A DNA stretch of 64,000 nucleotides from an uncultured Candidatus Saccharibacteria bacterium (lineage in GTDB: Bacteria; Patescibacteriota; Minisyncoccia; Phycocordibacterales; UBA918). A program made the translations under genes and the position numbers. The number at the start of each line of letters is the position of its first letter. The first letter of the stretch is position 1. Of this stretch, positions 1,960 to 62,040 are shown piece by piece. The stretch spans positions 457,973 through 521,972 of the forward strand of contig CAYGLK010000001.1 of the NCBI GenBank assembly GCA_964350985.1, in the 5' to 3' direction. The notes under the pieces were generated by a model. It was given only the letters and a program-made list of their open reading frames with translations, was not told the DNA's origin and did no database searches.

Positions 1960-2002
1960 AAGGCCTGTTTTAACATACTTTAGCCAACTATGACAACGGT
2001 TT

Positions 2003-2890
2003 CTACTCTAATTCTTCTTCCGTATCATCAGCAGCTTCTTCAGTACTTGTAGCAACTCCTTCTTCTTCCGGAACCGCTACTTCCTCATTAACGAATACTC
2101 TTGAACCAAAACGTAGATCTAGATAAAGGAAATTTCCTGGCTCAAGATGAGAAAATTGTTCTGAATTAATTATTGTTTGCAAGTTTGAAACAGTATCTAT
2201 TGCTGGAGTATCTAGATTGGCCTTGATTTCACTACCGCGGGCTAAAGTGTAAAAAACATCTCCAGTTGAATTAATTTCAATTTTTACGACATACCAACCC
2301 AACTGTGATAACAAGTAGGTAAATTCTTTAGAGTTTACATAATACTCCTCACTAAACGGTTTGGTATTTATTTCAAAACGATTTTCAACATCGTAATAAC
2401 GCACCAAACTTGAACCAGATAAATTAGGTGCCTTTGCAAAAGCATAGCCCTCTTTATCTAAGAAAAGACAACTATCATGATCGTTACTATCGCACCACAA
2501 AGCATCAGGCAAGTACTCATCAAAAGTGACTGAGATTTCTTTTCTTGAAACACGATCTACTTTTACATCTTTTATTTTTTCTATTTGATTTACTCGCTCC
2601 AAAATACTCTCTTCCGGATATAAATAAGAAAACTTTTTTGGTATCAATTTAAAATATGATCCGGTAAGTTGTTCGCGAGCGATTGTTTCAACTTTTTTCT
2701 TATCAATAGTAAATCCGCCTTCTACTGTAACCGTGTCTAGCGTAAAGGTTGAAAGCCTAGTCCCATACCAAATAGCCGTAATAACTAAAGCTACTGAGCT
2801 AAATATAATCAGACCTAGAACAATTTGCTTGATTAAAAGAATTGTTCCAGGATCCAGATATTTTTTACGCTTTTTTGGTTTTGGTTTCAT
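2003..2890 (-). CDS. ftsQ: Cell-division protein FtsQ/DivIB-like (N-terminal basic tail, one TM helix, POTRA/beta domains)
   Basis: 295 aa. MKPKPKKRKK, then a TM helix, then a pattern typical of the FtsQ POTRA domain. The C-terminus has an acidic tail. Confidence 0.5.
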   Translation of the reverse strand: MKPKPKKRKKYLDPGTILLIKQIVLGLIIFSSVALVITAIWYGTRLSTFTLDTVTVEGGFTIDKKKVETIAREQLTGSYFKLIPKKFSYLYPEESILERVNQIEKIKDVKVDRVSRKEISVTFDEYLPDALWCDSNDHDSCLFLDKEGYAFAKAPNLSGSSLVRYYDVENRFEINTKPFSEEYYVNSKEFTYLLSQLGWYVVKIEINSTGDVFYTLARGSEIKANLDTPAIDTVSNLQTIINSEQFSHLEPGNFLYLDLRFGSRVFVNEEVAVPEEEGVATSTEEAADDTEEELE

Positions 2891-2899
2891 AGATATATA

Positions 2900-2933
2900 A
2901 AAGAAGGGCGGGCTTCGCCCGCCCTTCTTTTTG
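2900..2933. terminator. GC-rich perfect hairpin plus T-run (aagaagggcgggcttcgcccgcccttcttttt) between serS and ftsQ
   Basis: Inverted repeat read directly from the sequence. Confidence 0.6.
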
Positions 2934-2934
2934 A

Positions 2935-4200
2935 TTAACCAATCTTATCCTTACCCATATACTCACGTAGTTTTTCTGGAATCAGAATACTGCCGTCTTC
3001 CTGCTGAAAGTTTTCCAGTAGTGAAACGAGGATACGTGGTGTTGGGATGGCGGTACAGTTAAGTGAGTGTGCGTAACGCATCTTCCCTTCTGCGTCACGA
3101 TAACGAATATTAAATCTTCGTGTTTGGAAGTCGTGGAAGTATGAAGCTGAACTTATCTCTCTGTAAGTCTTTTCTCCTGGTACCCAGAGCTCAATATCAT
3201 ATTTCTTCACTTGTCCCTGACCTAAGTCACCACCGCAGTTTAATACCGTTCGATATGGAATTCCGAGTGATTCAATAAACTCTTCAGTATTGCGATTGAT
3301 CCACTCATGGAGACGGACACTTTCTTCATGTGAAGCTTCACACAAGACCACCTGTTCCAGTTTGAAAAATTCATGTACTCGAATTAGCCCTTTAGTATCT
3401 TTTCCATGACTTCCAGCTTCGCGACGATAACAAGGTGAGAACGCCAAAAACTTTGCTGGTAGTTGTGACTCTTCTAAAACTTCGTCAGCATAAAGACCCA
3501 TTGTTGAAACTTCTCCTGTACCGATCAGATAATCTTCGTCTTGAGTCTTATATACATCCTCAGCTTCGTTTGGTAGGTGTCCAGTTCCGTAAAGATTACT
3601 CTTACGAACAATACTCGGAACCAATAGTGGTTCAAAGCCTTTCTCTAAGAAAAACTTGTTAGCGTAGTTCCAAACCGCCCAAGAAAGTCGAGCGCCGTCA
3701 CCTCGAAGGTAGTAACCACGAAAACCATGAACTTTGGTCCCGCGCTCGAAGTCAGCCATCTTGTGTTTATTCATCAACTCTACGTGATCTTTAGCTTCAA
3801 AAGAAAAAGAAGTTTGTTCTCCCCACGTTTTGACTTCCTGATTATCAGCGTCACTATCACCATCAGGCACAGACATATCTGGAATGTTTGGTACTTGGAG
3901 CATTAATCCTTGCCATTCTTCCATTATTGGCTTCAGGGCTTCTTCTTCTTTCTGTAGATCTAGTTTAAGAACCTGCATCCCAGAGATAAGATGTTGTCTT
4001 AAAGCTGCATCATTTCCAGCCGCTGCAATTTCTTGTGAAGCTTTATTTTGTTCTGCTTTCTTAGTCTCAAGCTTGGTCATGATCTCACGCCGTTGATCAT
4101 CAATCTTAAGCAGTCGATCAATATCGATTTTAATCTTCTTTTTTTGAGCCGCTAGTTTTACTAGGTCAGAATTCTCTCTGATGAATTTAATATCTAACAT
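2935..4200 (-). CDS. serS: Seryl-tRNA synthetase
   Basis: 421 aa. N-terminal coiled-coil arm (MLDIKFIRENSDLV...), then a class II core with FRRE-like and GGxxG motifs, as in SerRS. Confidence 0.9.
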   Translation of the reverse strand: MLDIKFIRENSDLVKLAAQKKKIKIDIDRLLKIDDQRREIMTKLETKKAEQNKASQEIAAAGNDAALRQHLISGMQVLKLDLQKEEEALKPIMEEWQGLMLQVPNIPDMSVPDGDSDADNQEVKTWGEQTSFSFEAKDHVELMNKHKMADFERGTKVHGFRGYYLRGDGARLSWAVWNYANKFFLEKGFEPLLVPSIVRKSNLYGTGHLPNEAEDVYKTQDEDYLIGTGEVSTMGLYADEVLEESQLPAKFLAFSPCYRREAGSHGKDTKGLIRVHEFFKLEQVVLCEASHEESVRLHEWINRNTEEFIESLGIPYRTVLNCGGDLGQGQVKKYDIELWVPGEKTYREISSASYFHDFQTRRFNIRYRDAEGKMRYAHSLNCTAIPTPRILVSLLENFQQEDGSILIPEKLREYMGKDKIG

Positions 4201-4294
4201 AAAATATAGTCCAAGTATTATAACGCATCACTTCTCTAGGACGAAATCCCTTACTTAGCAACATCAAATGAGATCATGCTACACTTTTTAGAGA

Positions 4295-5164
4295 ATGGAA
4301 ATATCTCATATAACCAGTTCAGAATTTAAAAAGCATAATCTAGGCATTTTAAATGAAATCCCGCAGCCGCCGAAAGAATTTTGGTATCAAGGCAACCTAC
4401 CCGACTCAAGCATAACTCTACTAGCAGTTGTTGGCTCCAGAAAATACACTACCTATGGACAGCAAGTGATTGATCACCTTATCGGTGGACTAGCTGGTTA
4501 CCCTGTTGGGATTGTCTCTGGTTTAGCGTTAGGTATGGACGGATTAGCACACGAAGCAGCTCTCAAAAATAACCTATATACTTTAGCGATACCAGGTAGT
4601 GGACTTGATGAATCAGTCCTCTACCCAGCTAGTCACAAGAGCTTAGCTCGAAAGATACTCGAAAGTGGCGGTGGTCTTTTGTCTGAACTGGCGCCAAAGG
4701 CAAGAGCAGCTCTTTGGACTTTTCCACAGAGAAACCGGGTCATGGCTGGTCTTTGTAAAGCGACTCTACTTATAGAAGCAGGAGAAAAGTCCGGCACTCT
4801 GATTACCGCCAGAATGGCTGTCGACTATAATCGTGAACTATTGGCAGTACCTGGAAGTATCTTTTCAAAGAACTCTGCCGGTACGCATCAGTTCCTAAAA
4901 CTGGGAGCCACGATGGTAACTGAGGCGGCTGATATTTTAGAAGTACTGCAGATAGAAAGTGAAAAAACCAAACCTACACAAAATAGTTTACTTTTATCTG
5001 AAATTGAAAAAACTATTATTGAACTACTTCATGAACCTCAAGACAAAGACACCTTACTGAGACAACTTCCTTTACCGACTTCTGAAGCCAGTATTATCTT
5101 GATGAATATGGAAATGCAGGGTTATATTACCTATGAATCACCTCATTATCGGGCACTCATCTAG
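4295..5164 (+). CDS. dprA: DNA processing protein DprA (Smf)
   Basis: 289 aa. Rossmann-like DprA core VVGSRKYTTYGQQV...GLALGMDGLAHEAAL...PQRNRVMAGL. Confidence 0.8.
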   Translation: MEISHITSSEFKKHNLGILNEIPQPPKEFWYQGNLPDSSITLLAVVGSRKYTTYGQQVIDHLIGGLAGYPVGIVSGLALGMDGLAHEAALKNNLYTLAIPGSGLDESVLYPASHKSLARKILESGGGLLSELAPKARAALWTFPQRNRVMAGLCKATLLIEAGEKSGTLITARMAVDYNRELLAVPGSIFSKNSAGTHQFLKLGATMVTEAADILEVLQIESEKTKPTQNSLLLSEIEKTIIELLHEPQDKDTLLRQLPLPTSEASIILMNMEMQGYITYESPHYRALI

Positions 5165-5235
5165 TGTCAGTCGGAACTCTTATTATTTGACAGAATTCCT
5201 TAAGCCTAGTATTTGTTACTGAATCTTACATATAT

Positions 5236-7596
5236 ATGAGTAAATACACCCTAGTAATTGTTGAGTCGCCAGCTAAGGCTAAGACTATTGAAAAATACCT
5301 CGGAAAAGATTACCGCGTGCTTTCTTCTATTGGTCACGTGCGCGACTTACCAAAAAGTAACAAGGATGCTGTTGATATCGAAAACGGTTTTGTACCGCGG
5401 TATATTATTTCGCCTGGAAAAGACAAAGTGATTGCCGGACTTCAAAACGCGGCCAAAAAAGCTGATGAGGTACTACTAGCATCCGACCCCGACCGTGAAG
5501 GAGAAGCGATTGCCTGGCATGTTGCCGAACTTATCAAAGAAGTTAATCCAAAGCTGAAGCGAGTAGCTTTCAACGAGATCACTGAGGCGGCTGTCAAAGA
5601 AGCTATCGCTCACCCGAGAGAGATTGATCTTAATCTCAAGGAAGCTCAAGAAGCGCGTCGAGTGTTAGACAGATTGGTTGGGTACGATTTATCTGGCTTG
5701 ATCTGGAAGAAAGTTCGTTATGGCTTATCTGCTGGACGTGTACAATCTCCAGCTCTTCGTATCGTGATGGAAAGAGAACGAGAAATCCGTGCTTTTATTC
5801 CTGAAGATTACTACAACCTTACAGCTAATACTGAAGCCAAAGGTAAAGCAATTCCCTTTTTCTGTAGTGTTGAACCAAAAGAAAAAGACGAAGCTGAACG
5901 AATCAAGAAAGTTGGTGAAAAATCTGACTGGGTAATTAAAGATCTAAAGGAAACTGAAGCAAAGCGAAGTCCAAAACCACCTTTTACAACTTCAACACTT
6001 CAACAAACAGCTTCGACTCGGCTTGGCTTTTCGCCTTCGAGAACTATGGGAGCTGCTCAAAAGTTGTATGAAGCAGGACATATTACTTATATGCGTACTG
6101 ACAGCCCAAACATCAGTGTCGTAGCGCAAAAGCAGTTGATTGCCATGATCAATAAAAGTTATGGCAAAAGTTATTTGCAACCTAGACAATACAAATCAAA
6201 GAGTAAGTCAGCTCAAGAAGCTCACGAAGCTGTGCGTCCAACCAACTTTAATAAAGACTCAGCTGGTACAACTGGTGACCAAAAAGCGCTTTACGAACTG
6301 ATTTGGAATCGTACTGTTGCCTCACAGATGGCTGACGCTACTATCAAACGATCGAAGCTCATTACTAACATCACAGATACAAGTGAAACTATTCCTGACT
6401 TCTCAGTTAATGGTTCTCGGGTTATTTTTGACGGATGGCTGAAAGTAGATACCAGGGCTCGTGGTGAAGACACTGAAGTACCAAAGATAAATGTTGGTGA
6501 CTCTGTCAAACTAAAAGATATTAGTATTGAAGCTAAACAAACTGAACCACCAAACCGCTACTCAGAAGCTGGTTTGATTAAAGAACTAGAAAAACGCGGT
6601 ATTGGTCGTCCATCAACTTACGCCTCAACCATGAAAACCATCATTGATCGTGGTTACGTTATTAAAGAAGGTCGAACTCTGATACCAACTGACACGGGCG
6701 ATGTAGTTTCTTCTTTCTTGGAAAAACATTTCTTGGAATATATAAGTGATACCTTCACTAGTGATATGGAAGATGAATTAGACGAAATTGCTGAGGGAAA
6801 AAGAACTTATGTTAAAACTCTAACTGATTTTTATCTCCCTTTCCAAAAAGATGTTGCCGGAAAAGAAAATATTGAAAAAATCACCAACCTTGGTCCGGGA
6901 CCAAAACAATTCCCTTGTCCTGAGTGTGGCGCTGATATGATCATTAAACTTGGTCGCGGAGGCAACTTTCTCTCTTGTGGACGCTTCCCTGACTGTAATG
7001 GATCAAGACTGATTGACGGTAGCGAACTTAAGCCTGACGCACCTTTAGGAACTGATCCTGAGTCTGGTCTTGAAGTATTTATCTTAAATGGAAAATTTGG
7101 ACCATACGCTCAGTTGGGTGAGACACCAGAAAAAGTAAAGGGCAAAAAACAAAAAGCACCCAAGCGTGCTTCCCTGCCTTCAGGAGTAAAGCCAGAAGAC
7201 GTCACTCTAGAAATGGCGCTAAAGTTTTTGACTCTGCCTCGCGAATTAGGAGCTCACCCTAAAACTGAAGAACCAATTATCGCCAACACTGGTCAATACG
7301 GGCCATACTTAGCTCATGCTGGAGACTTCCGGTCACTTAAAGGCAAAGATGATCCTTATACTATTACCTATGAACGGGCGCTTGAAATTTATAAAGAGCC
7401 GAAGCAAACTCGAAAAGGTGAAACTCTACTAAAGGAACTTGGTATCAATCCTGGTACTAAAAAACTAGTTAATGTCTATGAATCAAAGTCTGGACGCTTC
7501 CTCAGAAAAGGTTTTAAAAGAATTAGTATTCCAGACGAAATCAAGACAGAAGATATCACTATTGAAGTTGCGGTTGAACTACTTAAAAGAGGCTAA
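5236..7596 (+). CDS. topA: DNA topoisomerase I
   Basis: 786 aa. TOPRIM N-terminus MSKYTLVIVESPAKAKTIEKYLG, active-site region HITYMRTDS, and a C-terminal zinc-ribbon CPECG...C..C. Confidence 0.9.
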   Translation: MSKYTLVIVESPAKAKTIEKYLGKDYRVLSSIGHVRDLPKSNKDAVDIENGFVPRYIISPGKDKVIAGLQNAAKKADEVLLASDPDREGEAIAWHVAELIKEVNPKLKRVAFNEITEAAVKEAIAHPREIDLNLKEAQEARRVLDRLVGYDLSGLIWKKVRYGLSAGRVQSPALRIVMEREREIRAFIPEDYYNLTANTEAKGKAIPFFCSVEPKEKDEAERIKKVGEKSDWVIKDLKETEAKRSPKPPFTTSTLQQTASTRLGFSPSRTMGAAQKLYEAGHITYMRTDSPNISVVAQKQLIAMINKSYGKSYLQPRQYKSKSKSAQEAHEAVRPTNFNKDSAGTTGDQKALYELIWNRTVASQMADATIKRSKLITNITDTSETIPDFSVNGSRVIFDGWLKVDTRARGEDTEVPKINVGDSVKLKDISIEAKQTEPPNRYSEAGLIKELEKRGIGRPSTYASTMKTIIDRGYVIKEGRTLIPTDTGDVVSSFLEKHFLEYISDTFTSDMEDELDEIAEGKRTYVKTLTDFYLPFQKDVAGKENIEKITNLGPGPKQFPCPECGADMIIKLGRGGNFLSCGRFPDCNGSRLIDGSELKPDAPLGTDPESGLEVFILNGKFGPYAQLGETPEKVKGKKQKAPKRASLPSGVKPEDVTLEMALKFLTLPRELGAHPKTEEPIIANTGQYGPYLAHAGDFRSLKGKDDPYTITYERALEIYKEPKQTRKGETLLKELGINPGTKKLVNVYESKSGRFLRKGFKRISIPDEIKTEDITIEVAVELLKRG

Positions 7597-7605
7597 AACA
7601 AATAC

Positions 7606-7644
7606 AAAGGCCGGTCCTAGGTTCCCTAGGACCGGCCTTTGTAA
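7606..7644. terminator. Hairpin aaaggccggtcctagg/cctaggaccggccttt after topA
   Basis: Perfect inverted repeat followed by T/A-rich sequence. Confidence 0.55.
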
Positions 7645-7689
7645 AAGTAAAAACTTGTTATTTAAAGCATATATCTCTACAATAACTAG

Positions 7690-9225
7690 ATGACTGCCAG
7701 AGATATTATAGTTTTACTTGAAAATCCAAGTGAAGCAGACAAAGCTTTAATTGAAAAAGCTTTTTCTTTTGTGGAGAAAGCACACGCTGGCCACAAAAGA
7801 TACTCGGGCGAACCCTACCTAAATCACCTAGCGGCTGTTGGCTCTAAATTAGCTGAAATGAACATGAGTGCGCGAACAGTTGCTGCTGGTCTACTCCATG
7901 ACTCTATTGAAGATACTGAAGTTACGGCTGATGATATTTTAAAAGAGTTTGGCGAAGAAATTCTATTTTTAGTTGAAGGAGTAACAAAACTTAGTTCAGT
8001 ACGTTACTACGGCAGTGATCGTCACAATGAGAGTCTCAGGAAACTCTTAGTTGCAACTAGTCAGGATATTAGAGTATTGATCATTAAGCTTGTTGATCGT
8101 TTGCACAACATGCAGACCTTGTCTCATATACCTGAAAAAAAACAATTACGGATTGCTACAGAAACCTTAGAGATCTATGTACCAGTAGCACACCGACTAG
8201 GAATGGGACGTATTCGTAAAGAACTTGAGGATCTTGCTTTCCCTTATGTTTTTCCTATTGAATACACTAAAGTACAGGAACTACTTGAAAGCAAAGCCGG
8301 TAAGTCCAATGAGCTACTGGAACGAGAAAGAAAAGCTTTGCAAAAAAGATTGGCTGAAATTGGGTTACTTAGTTTTAAGACTTCATATCGAGTAAAGGGT
8401 TTGTATAGCCTTTACCATAAACTTAAGAGAAAGGAGTGGGATATTGGTGTGGTGTATGACCTCCTAGCTATGCGAGTAGTTGTTCCTGACGTCGAAGACT
8501 GTTATCGAGCCCTAGGAATCATCCACAAACTCTGGCGACCACTACCAGGAAGAGTGAAAGACTATATCGCTTTCCCAAAGCCAAACGGCTATCAATCACT
8601 TCATACTACCGTCGCAACTCCAAACGGTGTGATTATGGAGATTCAAATTCGTACCGAAAGAATGCACCATGAATCTGAGTTTGGTATTGCTTCGCACCTA
8701 AGCTATAAAGAGCAAAACGGTGCCATTGCACCTGAAAGCCAGTCCCGTTTTACCAGTCTTATTCCTTCCCTATTTAGACCTTTTAGTAACGATAAAAAAA
8801 CAAAGGAAGATATCAAACAAGCAAAGGAACATGATCACCGAGAAAAAATACCTCTTTGGATTGCGGAGATCGGTGAGACTCACAGTAAAGAAAAGTCGAC
8901 CACAGCAGAGTTTGTCGAAGATACTCAAAAAGACTTCTTCTCAAACCGAATCTTTGTCTTTACACCCGTCGGTGACGTTGTTGACTTGCCAGTTGGCGCT
9001 ACACCGATAGACTTTGCTTACGCTATTCACTCTGAGGTTGGAGATCATATTTTTGGTGCCAAGGTAAACAAAAAACTAGTACAACTAGACAAAGAGCTCC
9101 ATAACGGAGACATAGTAGAGATTGAAACAAGAAAGTCAGCTAAGCCGACCGTTAAGTGGCTGAACTTTGTTAAGACCGCTTTGGCCAGACGACGAATCAA
9201 AGCAGCTCTGGAAATTAAAAATTAA
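7690..9225 (+). CDS. rel: (p)ppGpp synthetase/hydrolase Rel/SpoT homolog, short form with HD, synthetase and TGS domains only
   Basis: 511 aa. HD motif HDSIEDT, a RelA/SpoT synthetase core, and a C-terminal TGS (PVGDVVDLPVGATPIDFAYAIHSEVG). There is no ACT/RRM tail. Confidence 0.8.
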   Translation: MTARDIIVLLENPSEADKALIEKAFSFVEKAHAGHKRYSGEPYLNHLAAVGSKLAEMNMSARTVAAGLLHDSIEDTEVTADDILKEFGEEILFLVEGVTKLSSVRYYGSDRHNESLRKLLVATSQDIRVLIIKLVDRLHNMQTLSHIPEKKQLRIATETLEIYVPVAHRLGMGRIRKELEDLAFPYVFPIEYTKVQELLESKAGKSNELLERERKALQKRLAEIGLLSFKTSYRVKGLYSLYHKLKRKEWDIGVVYDLLAMRVVVPDVEDCYRALGIIHKLWRPLPGRVKDYIAFPKPNGYQSLHTTVATPNGVIMEIQIRTERMHHESEFGIASHLSYKEQNGAIAPESQSRFTSLIPSLFRPFSNDKKTKEDIKQAKEHDHREKIPLWIAEIGETHSKEKSTTAEFVEDTQKDFFSNRIFVFTPVGDVVDLPVGATPIDFAYAIHSEVGDHIFGAKVNKKLVQLDKELHNGDIVEIETRKSAKPTVKWLNFVKTALARRRIKAALEIKN

Positions 9226-10584: not shown

Positions 10585-10750
10585 ACAAAATAACAGTAAT
10601 TACCTCCACAAAGCTCTCGCCCTGTCTTATCTGACATTCTAACATACCCATCCTACCGGCCCTGTTTATAACTTTTGATTTTTCTGCTACACTCATCGTG
10701 AACCAAAGTAGATGTAGGAATAAGTAAAGAAGGTACAATTGAATATAAAT

Positions 10751-10802
10751 GCCGAAGTGGTGGAATGGTTACACCGTGAGATAGTCTCCCAGACTATCTC
10801 AC
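10751..10802 (+). pseudogene. tRNA-Leu 5'-half fragment (acceptor plus D-arm only) fused to an unrelated 12-bp hairpin. Together with its upstream 20 nt it is a direct duplicate of the tRNA-Leu(CAA) 5' region.
   Basis: 10730-10775 is near-identical to 10843-10888 (ggtacaattgaatata[a/t]atgccgaagtggtggaatggt[t/a]acac). It has no anticodon arm or T arm. Confidence 0.6.
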
Positions 10803-10863
10803 CTCAGAAACCGCAGGCATCATTTTAGTAAGATAAAGTGTAGAGGTACAATTGAATATATAT

Positions 10864-10944
10864 GCCGAAGTGGTGGAATGGTATACACGTGCGACTCAAA
10901 ATCGCATGGCGAAAGTCTTGAGGGTTCGAGTCCCTCCTTCGGCA
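10864..10944 (+). tRNA. tRNA-Leu (anticodon CAA), class II with long variable arm
   Basis: Manual fold: acceptor GCCGAAG/CTTCGGC, anticodon stem TGCGA/TCGCA, loop CTCAAAA, T-arm GAGGG-TTCGAGT-CCCTC. CCA is not encoded. Confidence 0.8.
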
Positions 10945-10994
10945 CAAAAACAATGAACCAAACACGAATAGTGTTTGGTGATTGTGTTTTTGTA

Positions 10995-11117
10995 GCCGAA
11001 GGAGGGACTCGAAAGACAGTTTCGAGGGACCCTTTAGGGACGAAACTGTCGGGGTCGAACGAGTGAGATATTTTATGAACGAAGTGAAATAAAATATCCA
11101 CGAGAGTGACCGAGTCC
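10995..11117. repeat. tRNA-flank modular element, copy A. It has three parts in order: an inverted copy of the tRNA-Leu 3' end (gccgaaggagggactcgaa), a 10-bp stem hairpin, and the conserved box ggggtcgaacgagtgagatattttatgaacgaagtgaaataaaatatccacgagagtgaccgagtcc.
   Basis: The same architecture recurs at 14187-14308 and 21695-21753, with variants at 12141-12385, 21204-21420 and 61769-62040. Confidence 0.7.
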
Positions 11118-11136
11118 TAAATCTCAATATTTAAAC

Positions 11137-12036
11137 ATGTCCCCTAAACCCAAAGTAATAGCAATTGTCGGACCAACTGCTTCAGGCAAGACTTCTCTCT
11201 CAGTTGAAGTAGCCAAAGCCTTTAATGGTGAAGTTATTTCCGCTGACTCACGACAAGTATACAAAGGACTTGATATTGGTTCTGGTAAAGTAACTCAGGA
11301 AGAAATGGAGGGAGTCAGACATCACTTACTTGATGTTATTAAACCGAACGAAACATATACTGGAGCCGATTTTGAACGAGACGCTAAAGTAGCGATTTCT
11401 GATATTCTAAGTCGCGGTAAGACACCTATTATCGCTGGCGGTACTTTCTTTTACCTTGATTTACTGCGAGGTACGATGCAGACAGCAGCAGTAGAACCAA
11501 ACCCAAAACTAAGAGCTGAGTTAGAAAAACTAACCAACCAAGAACTGTTTCAAAAAGTAGAATTATCTGATCCTAAAAGAGCTCAAGTGATTGATCCAGA
11601 CAATCGTCATCGACTTATTCGTACCTTAGAAATTATTGATTCCTTAGGTGAAGTACCTGAGCCAAAGAAAATTGAAAGTGAATATCAGTGGCAAATTTTT
11701 GGTATTGATATAGATAACGAAGACTTACACCCACGAATTGAAAAACGTCTTCATGACCGTTTAAAAAATGGCATGGTTGAAGAAGTGGAAAACCTACTTA
11801 AAGGTGGGTTAAGTAAAGAAAAGCTATCTGGCTTTGGGCTTGAGTATCGCTATCTAACTAGCTACATCCTTAAAGAAATTTCTTACGAAGAAATGACAGA
11901 ACATATTTTTGCTAAAAGTCGACAATTTGCTAAGAGGCAGCGAACTTGGCTCAAGCGTGACCAAGAGATAATTTGGAAGAAATTCCCTGTCGACTTAGAA
12001 GATGTGAAAGCTGACATAGAGGGATTTCTAGAATAG
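11137..12036 (+). CDS. miaA: tRNA dimethylallyltransferase
   Basis: 299 aa. P-loop IAIVGPTASGKTSLS, ISADSRQVYKGLDIGSGK and IAGGTFFY are typical of MiaA. Confidence 0.85.
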   Translation: MSPKPKVIAIVGPTASGKTSLSVEVAKAFNGEVISADSRQVYKGLDIGSGKVTQEEMEGVRHHLLDVIKPNETYTGADFERDAKVAISDILSRGKTPIIAGGTFFYLDLLRGTMQTAAVEPNPKLRAELEKLTNQELFQKVELSDPKRAQVIDPDNRHRLIRTLEIIDSLGEVPEPKKIESEYQWQIFGIDIDNEDLHPRIEKRLHDRLKNGMVEEVENLLKGGLSKEKLSGFGLEYRYLTSYILKEISYEEMTEHIFAKSRQFAKRQRTWLKRDQEIIWKKFPVDLEDVKADIEGFLE

Positions 12037-12069
12037 CTAGTTTGTGCTAGACTAAATCGTCGAAAATAA

Positions 12070-12140
12070 GGGCCTATAGTTCAGTGGTAGAATGCCGGTT
12101 TCCAAAACCGTTGACCAGGGTTCGAATCCTTGTGGGCCCG
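12070..12140 (+). tRNA. tRNA-Trp (anticodon CCA)
   Basis: Manual fold: acceptor GGGCCTA/TGGGCCC, anticodon loop TTCCAAA, T-arm CAGGG-TTCGAAT-CCTTG. There is one 27-43 mismatch. Confidence 0.75.
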
Positions 12141-12385
12141 CCCGAGTAAAAGCAAAAAGCCAAGACACCTGTCTTGGCTTTTTGCTTTTAGAACCTGACC
12201 TGCGTCAGGTTCGTACTCGGGCGGGAGCCGCAGGCATGTTTTGGCTTTTCATTAAGCCAAAACAGCCGAGGCGGGGTCGAGAGTACTTACTAGAATAGGA
12301 GCGAAGCGAACTATTATAGTTAGTAACTCGTGACCGCATAGAAATATAACCTCCACGAGAGTGAAAGAGTTGGTTGGTTAAACTA
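12141..12385. repeat. tRNA-flank modular element, Trp copy. It contains an inverted repeat of the tRNA 3' end plus trailer (cccgcccgagta...tactcgggcggg) enclosing a terminator hairpin, then a box catgttttggc-N10-gccaaaacagccgag, then a degenerate ..ccacgagagtga.. box.
   Basis: Shares the box with 61865-61900 and the terminal box with copies A, B and C. Confidence 0.55.
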
Positions 12386-13303
12386 CTAAGAACGACAATC
12401 CCAGTGATCATTACTTGTATTTACTCCTTCTCGAACACATGCAACTCCGCTACTAATATTTACTCTACCTTGGCGACTTCCCTGATTTCCATCTCTAAAG
12501 TTTGGCCCCATAATATATGAATTAACGTCACTGGTTCTTAAGTCAAACTTATCTCCGCCAGCATGAGTTCCTGGTCCACTACCAGAGTGCCCTAGCTCAC
12601 TTCCTCCTGTTACTGTAAATGCTGGACAAGCGGTGCCGCATTCATTTCTTAAGTGAATAAGTCCTTGTATCGCTCCAGGATTTAATCCTTCTACACTAGT
12701 ACATCCTCCTGGGTGATCTTGATATCTGACACCAGCTGGACACTCCCCTTTATTAACGGTGATTCCATTTGAAGCAAGTGTACTTCTAGCTTCTCCATTA
12801 CCAATAACAGGAACTGCTCCCGGATCTACTGGAGTAACTCCACCCACCGCAGCTGGTGGATTATAAGTTGGTGTTTGTGTCTGGCACTGAACTTCAGACC
12901 ACGGACCCCAACCTTCTATTTCTCCAATCGGAGCATTTGACACACCTTCACCACTTCCCCCACCAACAATTGAACGCATGATCGTATCAACAAAAATCCA
13001 AGCCGACATAATGATTAAAAGCCCAATGATTCCATTCTTAAATTTACTTTTAGCACCTTCTAGTGCTGAAGTATTTCCAGCAGATGTAATTAGTCCGAAA
13101 CCAGACACCATCATGATATATACAAAAATCAGAAAGACTGCTCCAAAAAGCCAAATGATACCCTTATTAGCAATATCTACTACATTACAAGCACTACAAC
13201 TTGTCCCTTCACAAATTAATTCCGAAATACCAGCAGCATCAACGGTACTAACTGGAATAAAGACAAAAAAAAGTGCCACTAGAATTAGAAATTTCATACC
13301 CAA
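12386..13303 (-). CDS. VirB2/TrbC-like pilin domain (signal peptide plus two TM helices) fused to a C-terminal Cys/Gly-rich domain with peptidase-M15/LAS-like motifs
   Basis: 305 aa. The N-terminal 110 aa resemble the tandem pilin paralogs at 26.3-28.1 kb. The C-terminus has THAGGDKFDL (H-x3-G-x3-D) and DHWD, resembling VanY/M15 zinc peptidases. That assignment is tentative. Confidence 0.45.
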   Translation of the reverse strand: MGMKFLILVALFFVFIPVSTVDAAGISELICEGTSCSACNVVDIANKGIIWLFGAVFLIFVYIMMVSGFGLITSAGNTSALEGAKSKFKNGIIGLLIIMSAWIFVDTIMRSIVGGGSGEGVSNAPIGEIEGWGPWSEVQCQTQTPTYNPPAAVGGVTPVDPGAVPVIGNGEARSTLASNGITVNKGECPAGVRYQDHPGGCTSVEGLNPGAIQGLIHLRNECGTACPAFTVTGGSELGHSGSGPGTHAGGDKFDLRTSDVNSYIMGPNFRDGNQGSRQGRVNISSGVACVREGVNTSNDHWDCRS

Positions 13304-13391
13304 TAATTATACTATATCAGTTACCTACAAAAGAAGCTCTGTGGCTAGCCTATTTGAAAAACCCACCGTCTGTGGTAATTTGTATGGCACT

Positions 13392-13474
13392 GCGTCGGTA
13401 CTCAAGCGGTCAACGAGGGGAGACTGTAAATCTCCTGACTTATGTCTACGAAGGTTCGAATCCCTCCCGGCGCA
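13392..13474 (+). tRNA. tRNA-Tyr (anticodon GTA), long variable arm
   Basis: Manual fold: acceptor GCGTCGG/CCGGCGC with one G-U pair, anticodon stem GGAGA/TCTCC, loop CTGTAAA. Confidence 0.75.
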
Positions 13475-13585
13475 CAAACCTTGACAATACACTGTTTTTA
13501 GTGTATTGTTTATAAACCGTACTAAGGACTGACGTTTGCGAAAAGCGAATGCAGGAGATCGAAGGCGGAACCAGGAGAATGTTCC

Positions 13586-14029
13586 ATGAATCTGAGAATC
13601 TGGCTGAAAGCCAAAGCGAAGGTAGGTGACGATAGCAAGATCGCCAACCTGAAGGTCGAGTCGGACGAAAAAAGTGGGGGCAAGTACCTCAACGCTTACA
13701 TCGATCCGATGGACCCCGCCATGCGCATGCCTATCGTCCCATGCAAGGACGTGCGGGCGTACACGTACACGGACGAGTACCACGTCGGCTACCGGCCGGA
13801 CGGCTTGTACAAGACACCCCATGCCGAGGCACGAGTGAAGACCAACAAGAACCTCCATACCCCAAGCTGGGACAACAAGGAGGACTGCTCGTTCATGATG
13901 GTTTCGCAGACCATCTCCATCACCGCCCCTAGCCTGAAAGCGCTCCGCGAGATCTACTCCAAGGTCCGCACCGGCGAACTGAAGGCTACGGAAGTCTGGG
14001 GAGAGGTCAAGGAAGAAATGTCGTACTGA
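13586..14029 (+). CDS. Hypothetical protein encoded in a high-GC (~60%) foreign segment, 147 aa
   Basis: Strong GC3 bias in this frame only. RBS aggaga sits 7 nt upstream of the ATG and a rho-independent terminator follows. I recognise no family. Confidence 0.6.
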   Translation: MNLRIWLKAKAKVGDDSKIANLKVESDEKSGGKYLNAYIDPMDPAMRMPIVPCKDVRAYTYTDEYHVGYRPDGLYKTPHAEARVKTNKNLHTPSWDNKEDCSFMMVSQTISITAPSLKALREIYSKVRTGELKATEVWGEVKEEMSY

Positions 14030-14055
14030 CGCCACACCAGCTCCATGCAAGTCGA

Positions 14056-14088
14056 AGCAGCTCCTGCTTCCCTGCCGGAGCTGTTTTC
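14056..14088. terminator. Hairpin gcagctcc..ggagctg plus TTTT after the high-GC gene
   Basis: Inverted repeat read from the sequence. Confidence 0.55.
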
Positions 14089-14186
14089 TATTTATATTAA
14101 ACCGCACAAAAGTGTCTAACCAACTCCAGCTCGGCGCACCAAATACCAAAACCAAAGCTTACGCTTTGGTTTTGTTGTATTTGTTA

Positions 14187-14308
14187 GCGCCGGGAGGGAT
14201 TCGAATGACTCTTTCGAGGGACCCTCAGGGACGAAAGAGTCGGGGTCGCAAGAGTGAGATATTTTATGAACGCAGTGAAATAAAATCTCCACGAGAGTGA
14301 CCGAATCC
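14187..14308. repeat. tRNA-flank modular element, copy B. It opens with an inverted copy of the tRNA-Tyr 3' end (gcgccgggagggattcgaa), 713 nt downstream of the tRNA.
   Basis: The hairpin stem differs from copy A by compensatory changes (gacagtttcg/cgaaactgtc versus gactctttcg/cgaaagagtc). The terminal box ends gaccgaATccc, matching the Tyr T-arm. Copy A ends gaccgaGTcc, matching the Leu T-arm. Confidence 0.7.
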
Positions 14309-14587
14309 CGTAAAACGTCACGTGCGTAGGGATTCGAAAAGCTTTTGAGCATTTTCTTGAGTTTACGAAAAGAAAATCCAAAAGGTGTGCTGCCCCTGTA
14401 AGCAAAGCTTTCTTTCACTGCATTCATATCATAAATGAAAATAAAATTTAATTTAGATACTCATTTGTGAAAGTAACGACCGAAATTCCCTCCCAACACC
14501 CAGTAAATATTGACATCAGACATAAAAAGTAGTTAAATCTGGTTTGCTAGCCTGTCCTTTCCACCCCTCCCCCACCAAGGAAACATC

Positions 14588-14929
14588 ATGATCACATTCT
14601 CCCCCAAAAACAACTTCTTCGGCCGTTTCATTGCCTGGCTGAATGATTTTTCACTGGACATTCAAGAAGCCTGCTTCATCCGCAGAAAATTGACCCTTAC
14701 TGAGATGGTCCGATCGTCCAAGGAGGTCTTTGAATGCTGTAAAGAAGATGCCTCCCGAGAAGCAGCCTTGGAAATTTGGGACAACGCTGCTAAGAATCTA
14801 ATTCTAAGCACTGAGACGATCTCAGAGCTGGAAAAGGCTCTTTTGCTTTCACCTAGCGGTGGTAAGGCCGAAGAAACAGCAAGTGATTACCAAAGACCTA
14901 AACTTTTGGCTGCCGTCAGCGGCGAGTAA
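14588..14929 (+). CDS. Hypothetical small protein (113 aa), GC-elevated
   Basis: Upstream TTGACA-17-TTAAAT, RBS aagga, and two consecutive terminators downstream. Confidence 0.45.
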   Translation: MITFSPKNNFFGRFIAWLNDFSLDIQEACFIRRKLTLTEMVRSSKEVFECCKEDASREAALEIWDNAAKNLILSTETISELEKALLLSPSGGKAEETASDYQRPKLLAAVSGE

Positions 14930-21025: not shown

Positions 21026-21128
21026 CAAAAAGCTGTCCCCCGGGACAGCTTTTTGTTATTTTCGACAACAGAAGTCCTTAAAATACACTTTGATCGTATC
21101 TAATTTAATGCTAAAGTACTCTCTACAA

Positions 21129-21203
21129 AGTCCTGGTGGCGAAGTGGTTAACGCTGCGGTTTGCAAAACCGCCATACGTGGGTTCAACTCCCACCCAGGA
21201 CTC
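21129..21203 (+). tRNA. tRNA-Cys (anticodon GCA)
   Basis: Acceptor GTCCTGG/CCAGGAC, anticodon loop TTGCAAA, T-arm GTGGG-TTCAACT-CCCAC. Confidence 0.8.
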
Positions 21204-21431
21204 ACGTCATTAAAACGCTTCGAGCGTTTTAATGACGTGAGTCCTGGAGCATCATGCTTAGGCATGATGCGGGTGGGAGTTGAACAGCGGAGCAATGTTT
21301 TCTTTCCTCCTAGAAAGAAAACGAGCGAGCTGCGTCCAGTAGTTCTTATGAGCGTCAGCGAATTAGAAACTACGGGACAACTCCCAATTCTCGCCAATCC
21401 AGACAAATAAAAATCCACCATACAGAAACTT

Positions 21432-21517
21432 GCCGGGATGGTGGAATGGTAGACACGAAGGACTTAAAATCCTTTGCCTATTAAAAAAGCGTGCGGGTTC
21501 GAGTCCCGCTCCCGGCA
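21432..21517 (+). tRNA. tRNA-Leu (anticodon TAA), class II
   Basis: Acceptor GCCGGGA/TCCCGGC, anticodon stem AAGGA/TCCTT, loop CTTAAAA, T-arm GCGGG-TTCGAGT-CCCGC. A perfect terminator hairpin follows at 21519-21560. Confidence 0.7.
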
Positions 21518-22085
21518 CAATAGTAAAAACCACCAACTTTTGTTGGTGGTTTTTACTATTGTCGTAGGGACTCGAAAGCCGGAACGTAACGGAGTGAAGT
21601 AAGGCAGGGTCGTGAGCGATATATTTTTAACGAGTTTACGAGTTAAAAATAATCGACTCCTGACCGAGTCCCGCTCCCGGCTTATCTGTACAAATGAGTG
21701 AGATTATTTTATGAACGAAGTGAAATAAAATAACCACGAGAGTGACCGAGTCCCTTTTGCTTTTGTGGTCACGAGTTACTAAGTCTTTTATTTCACTACG
21801 TTCATAAAAGTCTAAGTACTCTCGACCCCGACTTGTCGGCCCAAAGGGGCCCCGACTTCGTCTTTCAAGTCCTCTCCCGCGCGACAAACAGCAAAGCCCT
21901 AGAACAAATTGTTCTAGGGCTGCTGATTTGTGCGCGGGAGAGGAATCTTTCTCGTTACACGAGCGGTACAGGTTTCATATCGTACTCGCTTCGCTGCGTG
22001 CGATATATTCAACCTTTTCAAGTCCTCTCTCGAAAGCTAACGCTTTCTCCGCGCAAACTAAAAGCCCCGAAGGGCTTTCATTTTG
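21518..22085. repeat. Repeat-dense non-coding hub between tRNA-Leu(TAA) and tRNA-Leu(TAG). Components, in order:
- a terminator hairpin;
- a direct partial copy of the tRNA-Leu(TAA) 3' end (gagtcccgctcccggc, 21669-21684);
- the TTTTATGAACGAAGTGAAATAAAAT box (21695-21753) and its inverted copy (21783-21836), forming a ~140-bp nested palindrome;
- inverted and direct copies of the tRNA-Leu(TAG) 3' end (21873-21950).
   Basis: All repeats read directly from the sequence. I consider the ORFs predicted here spurious. Confidence 0.6.
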
Positions 22086-22167
22086 TGCGCGGGAGAGGAC
22101 TTGAACCTCCACAGATTGCTCTATTAGTTCCTAAGACTAACGCGTCTACCAATTTCGCCACCCGCGC
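22086..22167 (-). tRNA. tRNA-Leu (anticodon TAG), class II
   Basis: Reverse complement folds with acceptor GCGCGGG/CCCGCGC, anticodon stem TTAGT/ACTAA and loop CTTAGGA. Confidence 0.75.
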
Positions 22168-22265
22168 GGATGTGGGAAAGAGTATAACATAAATCAAAAA
22201 AATGTCTTCTGTGATTATTAGCTTGTTTAAACAGGTATTATATTGTAAACTTCGAGTCACATATT

Positions 22266-22338
22266 GCGCCCTTAGCTCAGATGGTAGAGCAGCTCCCTCT
22301 TAAGGAGACGGTCCAAGGTTCGATCCCTTGAGGGCGCA
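22266..22338 (+). tRNA. tRNA-Lys (anticodon CTT)
   Basis: Acceptor GCGCCCT/AGGGCGC, anticodon loop CTCTTAA, T-arm CAAGG-TTCGATC-CCTTG. Confidence 0.75.
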
Positions 22339-22350
22339 CAAAATAATATA

Positions 22351-24317: not shown

Positions 24318-25175
24318 ATGGACGTGCTTAAGAGACTCAAAAGCCTGGCTGGCTTGGCCACTTGGAGTAGTCATTTTGACACTCTGGGCAACATAATCGC
24401 AAGAATATTGGGCAGGAATCAAGTAGAAGGATCTCCACCGGCAGTGGGAGCTCCTCCAGTAGTTAAGGGGAGGAGCGGATTTGGCAGCTGGGGTGACGAG
24501 CGAAAGTGGCTCGTCTTCCTCGAAGCTGCTGAAACACACAGCCCAGGGGCAGCAAAGCTTCTGACTGATTTTTGGAATTGGGCTGACAAATATGATGGCC
24601 CGAGTTGGCTGGCCCGGAGTTACATTAAGTTGATCGGGAGTTTTAGAAGGACTCTCATCGTGGAAATGGGCTCCAGCGAAGGAGCGGAGTGTGGCAGCAA
24701 AACAACGAAGACAAGGACCACCCGCAAGGAAGAGGATGGTGAGAGTGTCGTTGTTGAGGAGCAGCGGACGGAAAAGCTGCACATCGCTGGCACATCAAAT
24801 CCCAAGCAACTGTTTCTGCGGATGGCCAAGATCATCCGCGAAAATCAAGCCAGTGACACGGCGCGGGGGCGGCTGCGAGGCTACAAAGCCTGTCGGCAAT
24901 TCCTCCATGATAACTGGGTACCATTTCCAGACCAGAAGATCATTACCCTTCTGGAACGCCTCGAGACTGGCAGTAAAGAAAGTGTGGCTACTCTATGGTC
25001 ACAAGCACTAGAGATCATCGGTCGCACCGACACACACATGACGTTTCATCTGTCCCAATGGGCGGATGATGCAGAAGTATGGTCGGTTGCTCGGCGGGCG
25101 GAATTACCAATCCGGCGAGCTGCAAGAACAACAACCCTCTTTGATCGGTGCCACGCTTTTTGTCGCCGAATCTAA
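24318..25175 (+). CDS. Hypothetical protein (285 aa) in a high-GC (~53%) island
   Basis: Frame-specific GC3 bias and RBS aagga. I recognise no family. The antisense ORFs here are spurious. Confidence 0.5.
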   Translation: MDVLKRLKSLAGLATWSSHFDTLGNIIARILGRNQVEGSPPAVGAPPVVKGRSGFGSWGDERKWLVFLEAAETHSPGAAKLLTDFWNWADKYDGPSWLARSYIKLIGSFRRTLIVEMGSSEGAECGSKTTKTRTTRKEEDGESVVVEEQRTEKLHIAGTSNPKQLFLRMAKIIRENQASDTARGRLRGYKACRQFLHDNWVPFPDQKIITLLERLETGSKESVATLWSQALEIIGRTDTHMTFHLSQWADDAEVWSVARRAELPIRRAARTTTLFDRCHAFCRRI

Positions 25176-25193
25176 CAACCCTTGGAGATCGGA

Positions 25194-26176
25194 TAATGTT
25201 TAGTGAAATCATGCGTCTGGTGCGGGCACTTCTGTCAGCTGCAGACGACCAGGAAGTGCGGGACATACTTATTGATAAACCTTCGCGTTTGCGAAGTGCG
25301 ATCATGCTGTTCTTCGTCCTTGCCTTTGGTGCAATATGCCTAGGCTGGTTCTGTAACATCATCGGCATCAAGGAGGCCAATGCTGTCCTGTTCTTTCTCG
25401 GAGCTTTCCTTATCGGAGCCAAGACGTTACTCAACCCAGCTCTGCTGGGAGCGAGTGGTGGTATTGGCCTCCTGCTGGGATGGCTCAACAGCGAGGGCGC
25501 TGCAAAGGGCGCTGGCAAAGGGATTTACTTCCTTTATCAAGCCAGTGTTTGGACCTTGTTATGGTTTACCTTGACCACGATGGTCTTGGCGACATGGTCC
25601 TTTCAAGAGAGCCCTGGTTCATTCTGGGTGTTCGCCATGGGGACCATGGTTATGGCCCTGGCTGTTACGGCCTACAAAGTCGAAGGAAAGACAACCTTCA
25701 CATTGATTGCCATCTATGCAATCGTTGTTATGGCGAGCGCAGGATGGCAAACACTTTCCACTGACCAGAAACCAAACTGGTCTTGGGAAAAAATAGTCCG
25801 GACCCTCGACGTCGACAAGACTGACGAGGAGAAGGCGGTGGAGGCAAAGGAAAACTTGGTTTCTGAAGCCAAGGCGAAGGCTGAGGCTGATGAAGTCACG
25901 CGGTTGACGAAAGCAGTGACCCAACAACTGCCAACAACGATCGCAGTGCCCCACTGCAAGAATGGAGTGTCCGCACCGGTGATATTACCGGTCGGCTGGC
26001 ACCTTCGTTCCGGCTGGGGAGGAGGCTCGGTCAAGGTTGAGTACCTCAGTGGTGGCGACTGGGAAGTTGCCACCAGGAGCAATACCGAAAAGCCGGTAGA
26101 GGCTTTCCGCTACTGCACCAACTCGGAACACAACGCGGCACTGGGCATAATGCCTTTGTCGTGGACACGTATCTGA
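25194..26176 (+). CDS. Hypothetical polytopic membrane protein with a C-terminal soluble domain, second gene of the high-GC island
   Basis: RBS GGAGAT sits 6 nt upstream of the ATG at 25194; the six-frame ORF starts at 25148. About six TM helices, then an E/K-rich linker and a C-terminal domain. Confidence 0.5.
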
Positions 26177-40914: not shown

Positions 40915-41069
40915 GAGATTTATTTCTACCTAATAAATAATATTTACTAGGTAGTAGGGACTGCCGGGCGCAGCGATACGAGTCGCCCCCCTCCTAGGGC
41001 GACGAGACAGCGAGCCGAGGTCACGAGCACTTAGTAGATTTGGAACGTAGTGAACAAATATACTTAGTG

Positions 41070-41117
41070 ACTTGGGACCAGTGCCAGCATTTCTGCGTCG
41101 TTCAAAGCTCAAGTAAT
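41070..41117 (+). repeat. Degenerate duplicate of the ftsZ 3' end, encoding ..[15 protein letters not shown]
   Basis: gacttgggaccagtgccagcatttctgcgtcgttcaaagctcaagtaa compared with the ftsZ 3' end gactggggggcagtccctgcattccttcgccggtcaaaactaaagtag. An in-frame TGA lies 19 codons upstream. Confidence 0.55.
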
Positions 41118-61768: not shown

Positions 61769-62040
61769 CATGAGTATACAAAACAACCCTGCCTTTAAAG
61801 GCAGGGTTGTTTTGTATAGGAAGCAAAGAGTTTTGCTTCCGCACTCAAGTGTCAGACGGAGACATGTTTTGGCTATCACTAATGCCAAAACAGTCGAGTC
61901 CGGGGAGGAAGTTCTTATGAACGTAGTGAATTAGAAACTTGACCCCACAAAAAAGTAAGATTTTTATGAGCGAAGCGAAATAAAGTAGCCAATTAGGATA
62001 CTGAATCTGTAAGATTCAAGTCCTGTATCGACGACAAAGT
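61769..62040. repeat. tRNA-flank modular element, Val copy. Components, in order:
- a terminator hairpin (61775-61816);
- a second hairpin;
- the box catgttttggc..gccaaaacagtcgag;
- variant boxes ttatgaacgtagtgaattag and ttttatgagcgaagcgaaataa;
- a 16-nt direct copy of the tRNA-Val 3' end (ttcaagtcctgtatcg, 62017-62032).
   Basis: Read directly from the sequence; modules are shared with the Trp, Cys and Leu flank elements. Confidence 0.6.

Follow-up and report, generated by a model that had tools for sequence, protein, structure and literature searches.

A single-gene accessory cassette, likely integrated by site-specific recombination, between tRNA-Tyr and its trailer element in a Candidate Phyla Radiation genome

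The 64,000-nt stretch of contig CAYGLK010000001.1 analyzed here (the window) contains an intact tRNA-Tyr(GTA) followed by a 664-nt unit that carries an open reading frame (ORF) of 147 aa, ORF147. A reading of this stretch from its sequence alone had described a foreign gene inserted between the tRNA and the tRNA's own flank element, and the geometry on which it drew is present. The repeat finder places a 19-nt perfect inverse copy of the tRNA-Tyr 3′ end (TTCGAATCCCTCCCGGCGC / GCGCCGGGAGGGATTCGAA) at 14187-14205, which is 711 nt from the end of the tRNA and leaves 713 nt between the repeat arms, whereas at tRNA-Leu(CAA) the inverse copy begins 49 nt past the tRNA end by our measurement and its 26-nt arms lie 37 nt apart. 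In the ORF list, the tRNA-Tyr gap holds a single ORF, the 147-aa frame at 13586-14029. We consider it likely that the unit at 13476-14139 is a self-contained single-gene accessory cassette that was integrated by site-specific recombination into the 3′ end of tRNA-Tyr in a genome of the Candidate Phyla Radiation (CPR). The closest relatives compared are labelled Paceibacteria. The elements of the locus are as follows, with the loci used for comparison given by L numbers.

13392-13475, plus strand: tRNA-Tyr(GTA) (ARAGORN; Rfam, 47.6 bits).
13476-14139, plus strand: the whole apparently inserted single-gene cassette, 664 nt (homologous to cassettes at L005, L004, L002 and L001; absent from the site in L039 and L015).
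13481-13509, plus strand: sigma-70-like promoter, TTGACA-17-TATTGT (promoter scan, 10/12 matches).
13485-13508, plus strand: palindrome CAATACACTGTTTTTAGTGTATTG (CAATACACTG-TTTT-TAGTGTATTG), occupying the promoter spacer (fold z −5.9).
13516-13570, plus strand: structured 5′ leader, an irregular hairpin conserved across the family.
13567-13585, plus strand: small hairpin GGAAC...GTTCC, exposing or masking the AGGAG ribosome-binding site at 13573-13577 (RNAfold of leaders).
13586-14029, plus strand: 147-aa ORF of an uncharacterized CPR family, GC 56.5%, GC at third codon positions (GC3) 80% (ORF list, homologues).
14038-14083, plus strand: intrinsic terminator hairpin and T-run (−23.3 kcal/mol, z −5.1).
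14038-14139, plus strand: cassette 3′ module, terminator plus end site (89% identical to the end of an unrelated cassette at L039).
14112-14139, plus strand: cassette-end site GTGTCTAACCAACTCCAGCTCGGCGCAC, a 28-nt mimic of the tRNA-Tyr 3′ end, with the right CGGCGCAC copy at 14132-14139.
14140-14205, plus strand: original tRNA trailer, a hairpin (14147-14174) and the 19-nt inverse complement (14187-14205) (repeat finder).
14195-14312, plus strand: flank element at tRNA-Tyr, a three-way junction of stems P1/P2/P3 (covariance model, 97.7 bits).
14327-14494, plus strand: second, degenerate trailer unit ending in a pseudo tRNA-Tyr 3′ end, CGAAATTCCCTCCC (14481-14494) (sequence, direct-copy alignment and comparison with L039 3420-3524).
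14510-14929, plus strand: next cassette, with a promoter-like site, TTGACA-17-TTAAAT, picked out by eye at 14510-14538, and a 113-aa ORF (14588-14929).

The expression signals that the sequence-only reading had given to the gene are in place. The AGGAG ribosome-binding site stands 8 nt ahead of the ATG, the ORF has its own terminator, and the palindrome lies right behind tRNA-Tyr, 10 nt past its end, where it is a candidate operator and/or a candidate terminator hairpin for tRNA-Tyr. The 113-aa ORF of the next cassette has a GC3 of 0.51, and homologues of it were not found among the loci compared.

The borders of the unit are set by alignment. Homology with the cassettes of L005, L004, L002 and L001 starts at CCTTGACA, 4 nt past the tRNA, and stops at ...CGGCGCAC. 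The end site GTGTCTAACCAACTCCAGCTCGGCGCAC at the far border resembles the tRNA-Tyr 3′ end GGTTCGAATCCCTCCCGGCGCAC, and the final 8 nt of the two are identical. Therefore, the 664-nt unit is flanked by a direct repeat of CGGCGCAC that derives from the tRNA end on both sides, with the left copy (an attL-like core) being the final 8 nt of the tRNA itself at 13468-13475. The exact part of this repeat is short, at 8 bp, and the end mimic is 2-4 nt longer than the matching segment of the tRNA. The region spanning the end site and the original trailer (14105-14210) folds at −45.7 kcal/mol, with a z of −7.1.

The same site can be seen without the cassette. In L039, a Paceibacteria metagenome-assembled genome (MAG), a 92%-identical tRNA-Tyr is followed directly by a 33-nt hairpin, the complement and the flank element, which is the uninterrupted link between tRNA-Tyr and flank element that the sequence-only reading had suggested looking for in relatives. 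This empty site, the CGGCGCAC direct repeat and the conserved tRNA-end mimic together support insertion between tRNA-Tyr and its flank element, and the tRNA was left intact. A second relative, L015, shares a backbone with the window that consists of a pilin/SLT region (minus strand), tRNA-Tyr (plus strand), roughly 1.6 kb of variable DNA and clpB (minus strand); the content of the variable part differs from that of the window and the cassette is absent there. The pairing of pilin and tRNA-Tyr is also found in L001, L038 and L039.

The ends of the unit are shared with other cassettes. Cassettes in L005 and L004, two in L039 and two in L045 close with the site GTGTCGAACCAMCTCYANYTCGGCGCAC, which in L001 stands immediately before the ORF147 cassette; a strict regular expression written for the cassette-end site gave zero matches. 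Over 104 nt, the window's terminator and end site (14038-14141) match the 3′ end of cassette A in L039 at 89% identity; the 147-aa protein of that cassette has no similarity to the 147-aa protein of the window. At the other end of the unit, the promoter-palindrome also stands behind other tRNA ends, whether real or pseudo, at L005 (twice), L045 and L069. It drives other genes in the second cassette of L005 and in L045, and in L069 it drives a 36%-identical member of the ORF147 family directly after tRNA-Ala(GGC). Further small GC3-enriched genes are seen as cassettes in the tRNA-Tyr hotspot of Paceibacteria MAGs, at L015 2778-2914 and L039 3710-4633; L039 has two such cassettes, each of which closes with a pseudo tRNA-Tyr 3′ end.

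Linkage to tRNA genes is seen in the family in general. A same-strand tRNA lies upstream in 11/15 distinct loci with sufficient upstream sequence, and in 9 of the 11 tRNA-linked loci the ATG is 110-420 nt past the tRNA. From tRNA end to ATG, the distances are 110 nt in the window (Tyr), 112 nt in L069 (Ala-GGC), 236 nt in L062 (Lys-CTT), 275 nt in L052 (Tyr), 286 nt in L048/L063 (Leu-CAA), 299 nt in both L059 (Gly-CCC) and L066 (Leu-CAG), 364 nt in L050 (Lys-TTT), 417 nt in L060/L061 (Phe) and 1371 nt in L064 (Tyr); in L001 (Tyr) a 6.6-kb element lies between the two. The family is thus found behind at least 8 tRNA types (Tyr, Leu-CAA, Leu-CAG, Lys-TTT, Lys-CTT, Gly-CCC, Phe and Ala-GGC). Three loci from different metagenomes, L059, L060 and L066, share 100% identity that begins about 25 nt past the tRNA and runs through the ORF, while their tRNAs are Gly-CCC, Phe and Leu-CAG, and between L059 and L060 the identity continues for more than 500 nt past the ORF into the next genes. 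Identical DNA behind different tRNAs points to mobility or recombination at tRNA trailers. In L060 (reverse strand, ~1190-1400) and L061 (~220-430), a complete tRNA-Phe without CCA is followed after 55 nt by a second, partial tRNA-Phe, which comprises the 3′ two thirds with CCA and has the cassette trailer directly behind it.

Linkage of this kind could also be read as residence. ORF147 would then be a vertically inherited CPR gene that has always lain downstream of tRNAs, and the displaced flank and pseudo tRNA end would have arisen by local duplication or rearrangement. The association with tRNAs in many CPR lineages fits such a history, as does a leader conserved over deep divergence, and a distant family member sits after tRNA-Tyr near clpB in L052. 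We nevertheless judge this history rather unlikely, given that both L039 and L015 lack the unit at this site, that the same 3′ module is carried by unrelated genes, that identical cassette DNA stands behind three different tRNAs and that members occur behind 8 tRNA types.

Several observations weigh against integration by site-specific recombination and are best taken together. The cassette codes only for the 147-aa ORF and has no integrase of its own, and neither a circular nor an excised form was seen. Within the 64-kb window, where other recombinase families were not searched for, there is no homologue of the serine recombinase described below for L001. The identity between tRNA and end site amounts to 8 bp plus loose similarity. 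In L053, L056, L065 and L067, the family ORF has no tRNA nearby. The distant subgroup of the family (L048, L050, L052 and the L059 group) has no tRNA-Tyr-mimic end site, and its conserved tRNA trailer is a different one, so that the integration signature is documented solely for the subgroup of the window. Finally, L052 is syntenic with the window (tRNA-Tyr, clpB, miaA, parB) and has its distant family member after tRNA-Tyr, which could mean old vertical residence.

A candidate for the recombining enzyme is found at L001. There, a 6.6-kb element (1341-8110) is bounded by the tRNA-Tyr 3′ end on one side and by a pseudo tRNA end of the same end-site type on the other, and it encodes a large serine recombinase with Resolvase, Recombinase and Zn_ribbon_recom domains. 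This element precedes the ORF147 cassette and displaces it from tRNA-Tyr. The recombinase ORF runs through the antisense strand of the tRNA and, because it does so, its C-terminus would change on excision. Assignment of this type of enzyme to the cassette is weak, because the repeat is only 8 bp and serine recombinases need no such repeat.

The cargo is a real gene under purifying selection. A search among 5.8 billion proteins returned four close homologues at 73-78% identity, and a profile search of 1.84 billion cluster representatives expanded the family to 94 clusters at E ≤ 1e-3. Differences between homologues pile up at the third codon position (e.g. 24/21/55 for positions 1/2/3), and among the window, L001, L002, L004 and L005 the ratio of nonsynonymous to synonymous substitution rates (dN/dS) is 0.14-0.21, with a dS of roughly 0.5-1.4 between close homologues. 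With an alignment of 21 sequences, AlphaFold2 gave a model of seven beta strands and one C-terminal helix with a predicted local distance difference test score (pLDDT) of 87 and a predicted template-modelling score (pTM) of 0.77, while an earlier model from 5 sequences was poor (pLDDT 45). A long antisense ORF at 13325-14155 could be taken to mean that the GC-rich stretch is a structured RNA, or that ORF147 is a chance frame. The substitution pattern already refutes such a reading, and with a dN/dS of about 0.15, 94 clusters and a confident model we give it almost no credence.

The product appears to be a small, mostly beta-stranded cytoplasmic protein of an uncharacterized and apparently CPR-restricted family. 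All named members are annotated as “hypothetical protein” and come only from Candidatus Kaiserbacteria and Candidatus Paceibacterota. The protein had no sequence-profile match in Pfam, PHROG, PADLOC, NCBIfam or PDB, and none of 26 family members (0/26) had a match in Pfam. Foldseek searches of PDB and BFVD returned only matches with E > 0.1 and a template-modelling score ≤ 0.36 (ribosomal uS10, PII, levivirus coat proteins and AAA ATPases), which we treated as noise. Peptide patterns, which reach close relatives only, found none in 185,579 GTDB species representatives, and patterns of this kind found no close relatives in IMG/VR or the JGI metagenomes; tblastn gave no match in phage and plasmid collections.

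The size of the unit also brings to mind a transposon. IS200 is a minimal insertion sequence of ~700 bp, and the cassette is like it in size, in having a single small ORF, and in its left-end hairpin and a hairpin that could occlude the ribosome-binding site (13485-13508 and 13567-13585). On this account the unit would be a minimal IS200/IS605-like transposon of ~700 nt with ORF147 as its transposase. Unlike IS200, the cassette has no HUH/Y1 signature: there was no match to Y1_Tnp or any other Pfam family, and the conserved residues include no His-hydrophobic-His (HUH) motif. Its predicted fold has no structural match, it is present as a single copy in the window and its position is specific to tRNA ends. 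A transposon of this type is very improbable, and we rejected it for want of the motif and of repetition.

The composition of the gene sets it apart. The sequence-only reading had put the GC content of the segment at about 60%; its perception of an extreme deviation stands, whereas the figure was somewhat high. The window as a whole has a GC content of 40.5%, the tRNA-Tyr gap 52.0%, and the richest 444-nt segment in the 64 kb, starting at 13641, reaches 58.8%. The reported GC3 bias of the 147-aa ORF is present, and almost all of its excess GC falls on third codon positions. GC at codon positions 1/2/3 is 0.51 / 0.39 / 0.80, and against the 58 ORFs of the window (GC3 mean 0.336, standard deviation 0.083) ORF147 has a z of about 6. 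A second GC-rich island of ~53% GC is found in the window at 24318-26176, with ORFs of 285 and 342 aa (GC3 0.53 and 0.60), and adjoins a pilin-like gene.

High GC3 is found throughout the family. Across 16 loci, with homologues that are 27-78% identical and host GC contents of 37-58%, family GC3 ranges from 0.54 to 0.88, and most values lie at 0.7-0.88. In the window, L001, L002, L004 and L005 it is 0.72-0.80 at a host or contig GC of 39-54%; in L048, L050, L052, L053, L056 and L058, 0.70-0.86 at 37-52%; and in L059 and L062, 0.81-0.88 at ~40%. The two lower values are 0.57 in L065 (38%) and 0.54 in L069 (45%), and L067, from Kaiserbacteria, has 0.69 at 58%. With a dS of 0.5-1.4, third positions have turned over and yet remained G or C. 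Because high GC3 is kept across the family despite a dS of about 1, it is a maintained property of the family and of the cassette pool and not an un-ameliorated relic. Other cassette genes of similar arrays are enriched as well, though more weakly, with a GC3 of 0.51-0.70 and one at 0.44, and the cassette pool as a whole is therefore GC-richer than its hosts. Candidate causes are origin in and continued circulation from higher-GC CPR bacteria such as that of L067, biased gene conversion among copies, and selection on the mRNA.

The same figures bear on the proposal, made from the sequence alone, that the gene was recently acquired from a high-GC organism, possibly an actinobacterial host, with its GC content as an un-ameliorated donor signature. 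The deviation is indeed strong (GC3 0.80 versus 0.34), codon-position values of this kind are typical of genes from genomes with ~60-65% GC, and one family member is native-like in a 58%-GC contig. However, this contig, L067, is the only one with a donor-like composition and belongs to Kaiserbacteria, which is another CPR lineage. All homologues with context lie in CPR-type gene neighborhoods, and none were found outside such contexts; the pattern search of the GTDB representatives, which again reaches close relatives only, and the phage, plasmid and IMG/VR searches returned nothing. Conservation of the ORF in low-GC relatives, which the proposal itself had named as evidence against it, is what we found: close homologues in genomes of ~40% GC still have a GC3 of 0.72-0.79 at a dS of about 1. 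Furthermore, promoter, leader and terminator are of ordinary, AT-normal composition and are conserved along with the gene. Neither homologues in a donor clade nor a composition decaying towards that of the host was found, with the search of non-CPR genomes limited to close relatives, and we regard recent gain from such a donor as unlikely.

Integration of a cassette at tRNA-Tyr would account for this arrangement in the following way. The interval from tRNA-Tyr to clpB would be a variable hotspot in a Paceibacteria-like CPR genome. The unit carries an end site of ~50 nt imitating the T-loop and acceptor 3′ strand of tRNA-Tyr, and a crossover within the shared core CGGCGCAC would regenerate the tRNA and leave the mimic adjoining the old tRNA trailer (hairpin, inverse complement and trailer element). 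The recombinase would act in trans; among enzyme types, a large serine recombinase such as that of L001 is the best candidate. Repetition of such events would amount to serial site-specific integration at a tRNA end. An excised or circular form is predicted to carry the junction ...CTCGGCGCAC|AAACCTTGACA... (...CAGCTCGGCGCAC|AAACCTTGACAATACACTG...), and the empty site would read ...CCCTCCCGGCGCAC|CAAATACCAAAACC...

A cassette integrated in this manner can be compared with several known systems. As in tRNA-targeting integrative elements, it sits exactly at the tRNA 3′ end with the tRNA intact and a copy of the tRNA end at the far side, pseudo tRNA ends separate the members of tandem arrays, an empty site exists, and an element bearing a recombinase occupies the site at L001. 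Unlike those elements, the cassette is 664 nt long with one cargo gene and no integrase, its repeat consists of 8 exact bp plus a degenerate mimic, and its end module is common to unrelated single-gene units. The cassettes of these arrays resemble integron cassettes, which consist of an ORF and an attC site, in being single-ORF units in series, each of which closes with a conserved module of ~100 nt that is common to unrelated genes and may be a recombination site. However, each unit here comes with a promoter and a terminator of its own, neither IntI nor attI nor Pc was seen and no integrase is adjacent, the site mimics a tRNA end instead of an attC-type imperfect palindrome, and the host is a CPR bacterium. 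In E. coli tyrT, tRNA-Tyr is followed by 178-bp repeats, each with a tRNA 3′ end, which are associated with rtT RNA and the Tpr peptide. That locus resembles the window in its repeated units behind tRNA-Tyr, which include tRNA 3′-end copies and a small coding region, but the two are unrelated in sequence, the copies in the window are both inverted and direct, and the window's cargo, a conserved 147-aa protein, has regulatory signals of its own. A search of the literature found no description of these cassettes or of the tRNA-trailer element.

A broader reading, which we offer tentatively, is that CPR bacteria possess integron-like arrays of promoter-bearing single-gene cassettes behind their tRNAs, with tRNA-end-mimic modules and interleaved trailer RNA, of which ORF147 would be the flagship cargo, a CPR-wide family that has its own leader RNA and whose GC3 is actively maintained in AT-rich genomes. 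If so, GC3 in ORF147 could be maintained by biased gene conversion between mobile copies or by selection on the mRNA. Genomes of CPR bacteria (Patescibacteria) are small, and little is known of the mobile elements and routes of gene flow in them. The locus suggests a concrete and recurring route, in which single-gene units at tRNA 3′ ends are recognizable by sequence and can be counted across metagenomes. It also cautions that a deviation in GC is by itself a poor argument for transfer from host to symbiont, since the extreme GC3 is here a stable trait of a family whose synonymous sites are saturated. The 94-cluster family with its confident but unmatched fold, the covarying 55-nt leader RNA and the three-way-junction element found behind most tRNAs of many CPR lineages are uncharacterized objects that can be tested.

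The leader, ~55 nt in length, lies upstream of every family ORF and has the consensus CCG-N-GGR-N-CKG-[P2 hairpin]-CRG-GAA/GAGA-YCC-N-CGG-AA. Folded one by one, 11/11 leaders adopt a single irregular-hairpin architecture. The apical stem P2 occurs in at least 7 different sequences with pairing kept in all of them, which is covariation. RNAalifold gave a weak result on the leader since MAFFT had misaligned P2 between two subgroups, and the per-sequence folds were used instead. In 419 kb of sequence, a regular expression for the leader matches solely ahead of family ORFs; in the JGI metagenomes, the motif occurs at 8 loci and a family ORF follows in 8/8. An Rfam 15 scan over 10700-14700 returned only tRNAs and chance matches, leaving the leader unmatched at E ≤ 10. 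We therefore consider the leader a candidate cis-regulatory RNA that probably controls translation.

The flank element is itself widespread in the CPR. A covariance model finds 8 full copies of ~120 nt in the window (11003-11121, 12216-12345, 14195-14312, 21274-21388, 21566-21675, 21757-21870 on the minus strand, 61849-61952 and 40955-41089). The element trails 7/9 tRNAs, namely Leu(CAA), Trp, Tyr, Cys, Leu(TAA), Leu(TAG) and Val, and an orphan copy stands behind the terminator of an ftsZ-like gene. On the 5′ side, the element is the inverse complement of its cognate tRNA from the T-loop to the acceptor 3′ end; on the 3′ side, it repeats part of that end. Compensatory changes support 13/34 of the pairs predicted by alifold, and a G-U pair is invariant on the tRNA strand. 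The element matched no Rfam family. We considered a primer-binding site, a T-box, a guide RNA (omega or bridge) and a hammerhead or other known ribozyme, and set these aside as no defining feature and no Rfam match was found.

The loop motif of the element, TATGAACGNAGTGAAATAAAA, occurs exactly in 42 GTDB contigs, with Parcubacteria/Paceibacteria, Saccharibacteria and Kaiserbacteria accounting for most of them. The motif is usually found downstream of a tRNA, at a distance of 100-300 nt, and in one case downstream of a tmRNA. The CPR trailer motif is also carried by L007, L045 and L008/L025/L034, whose MAG labels are Patiriisocius, Opitutia and Clostridia and which may be mis-binned CPR contigs. 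In L034 and L025, the loop motif forms tandem arrays with a period of 110-119 nt.

Two further arrangements of tRNAs and trailers were seen in the window. A dense cluster at 21100-22340 contains tRNA-Cys, Leu(TAA), Leu(TAG, minus strand) and Lys, and two convergent series of trailer units meet there at ~21755, with two types of unit separated by copies of tRNA 3′ ends. Upstream of tRNA-Leu(CAA), a 39-nt duplication (10731-10769 versus 10844-10882, 97% identical) comprises sequence immediately preceding the tRNA together with the tRNA's first 19 nt. An unrelated hairpin lies behind the upstream copy, and the duplication may be the scar of a rearrangement at the 5′ side of the tRNA.

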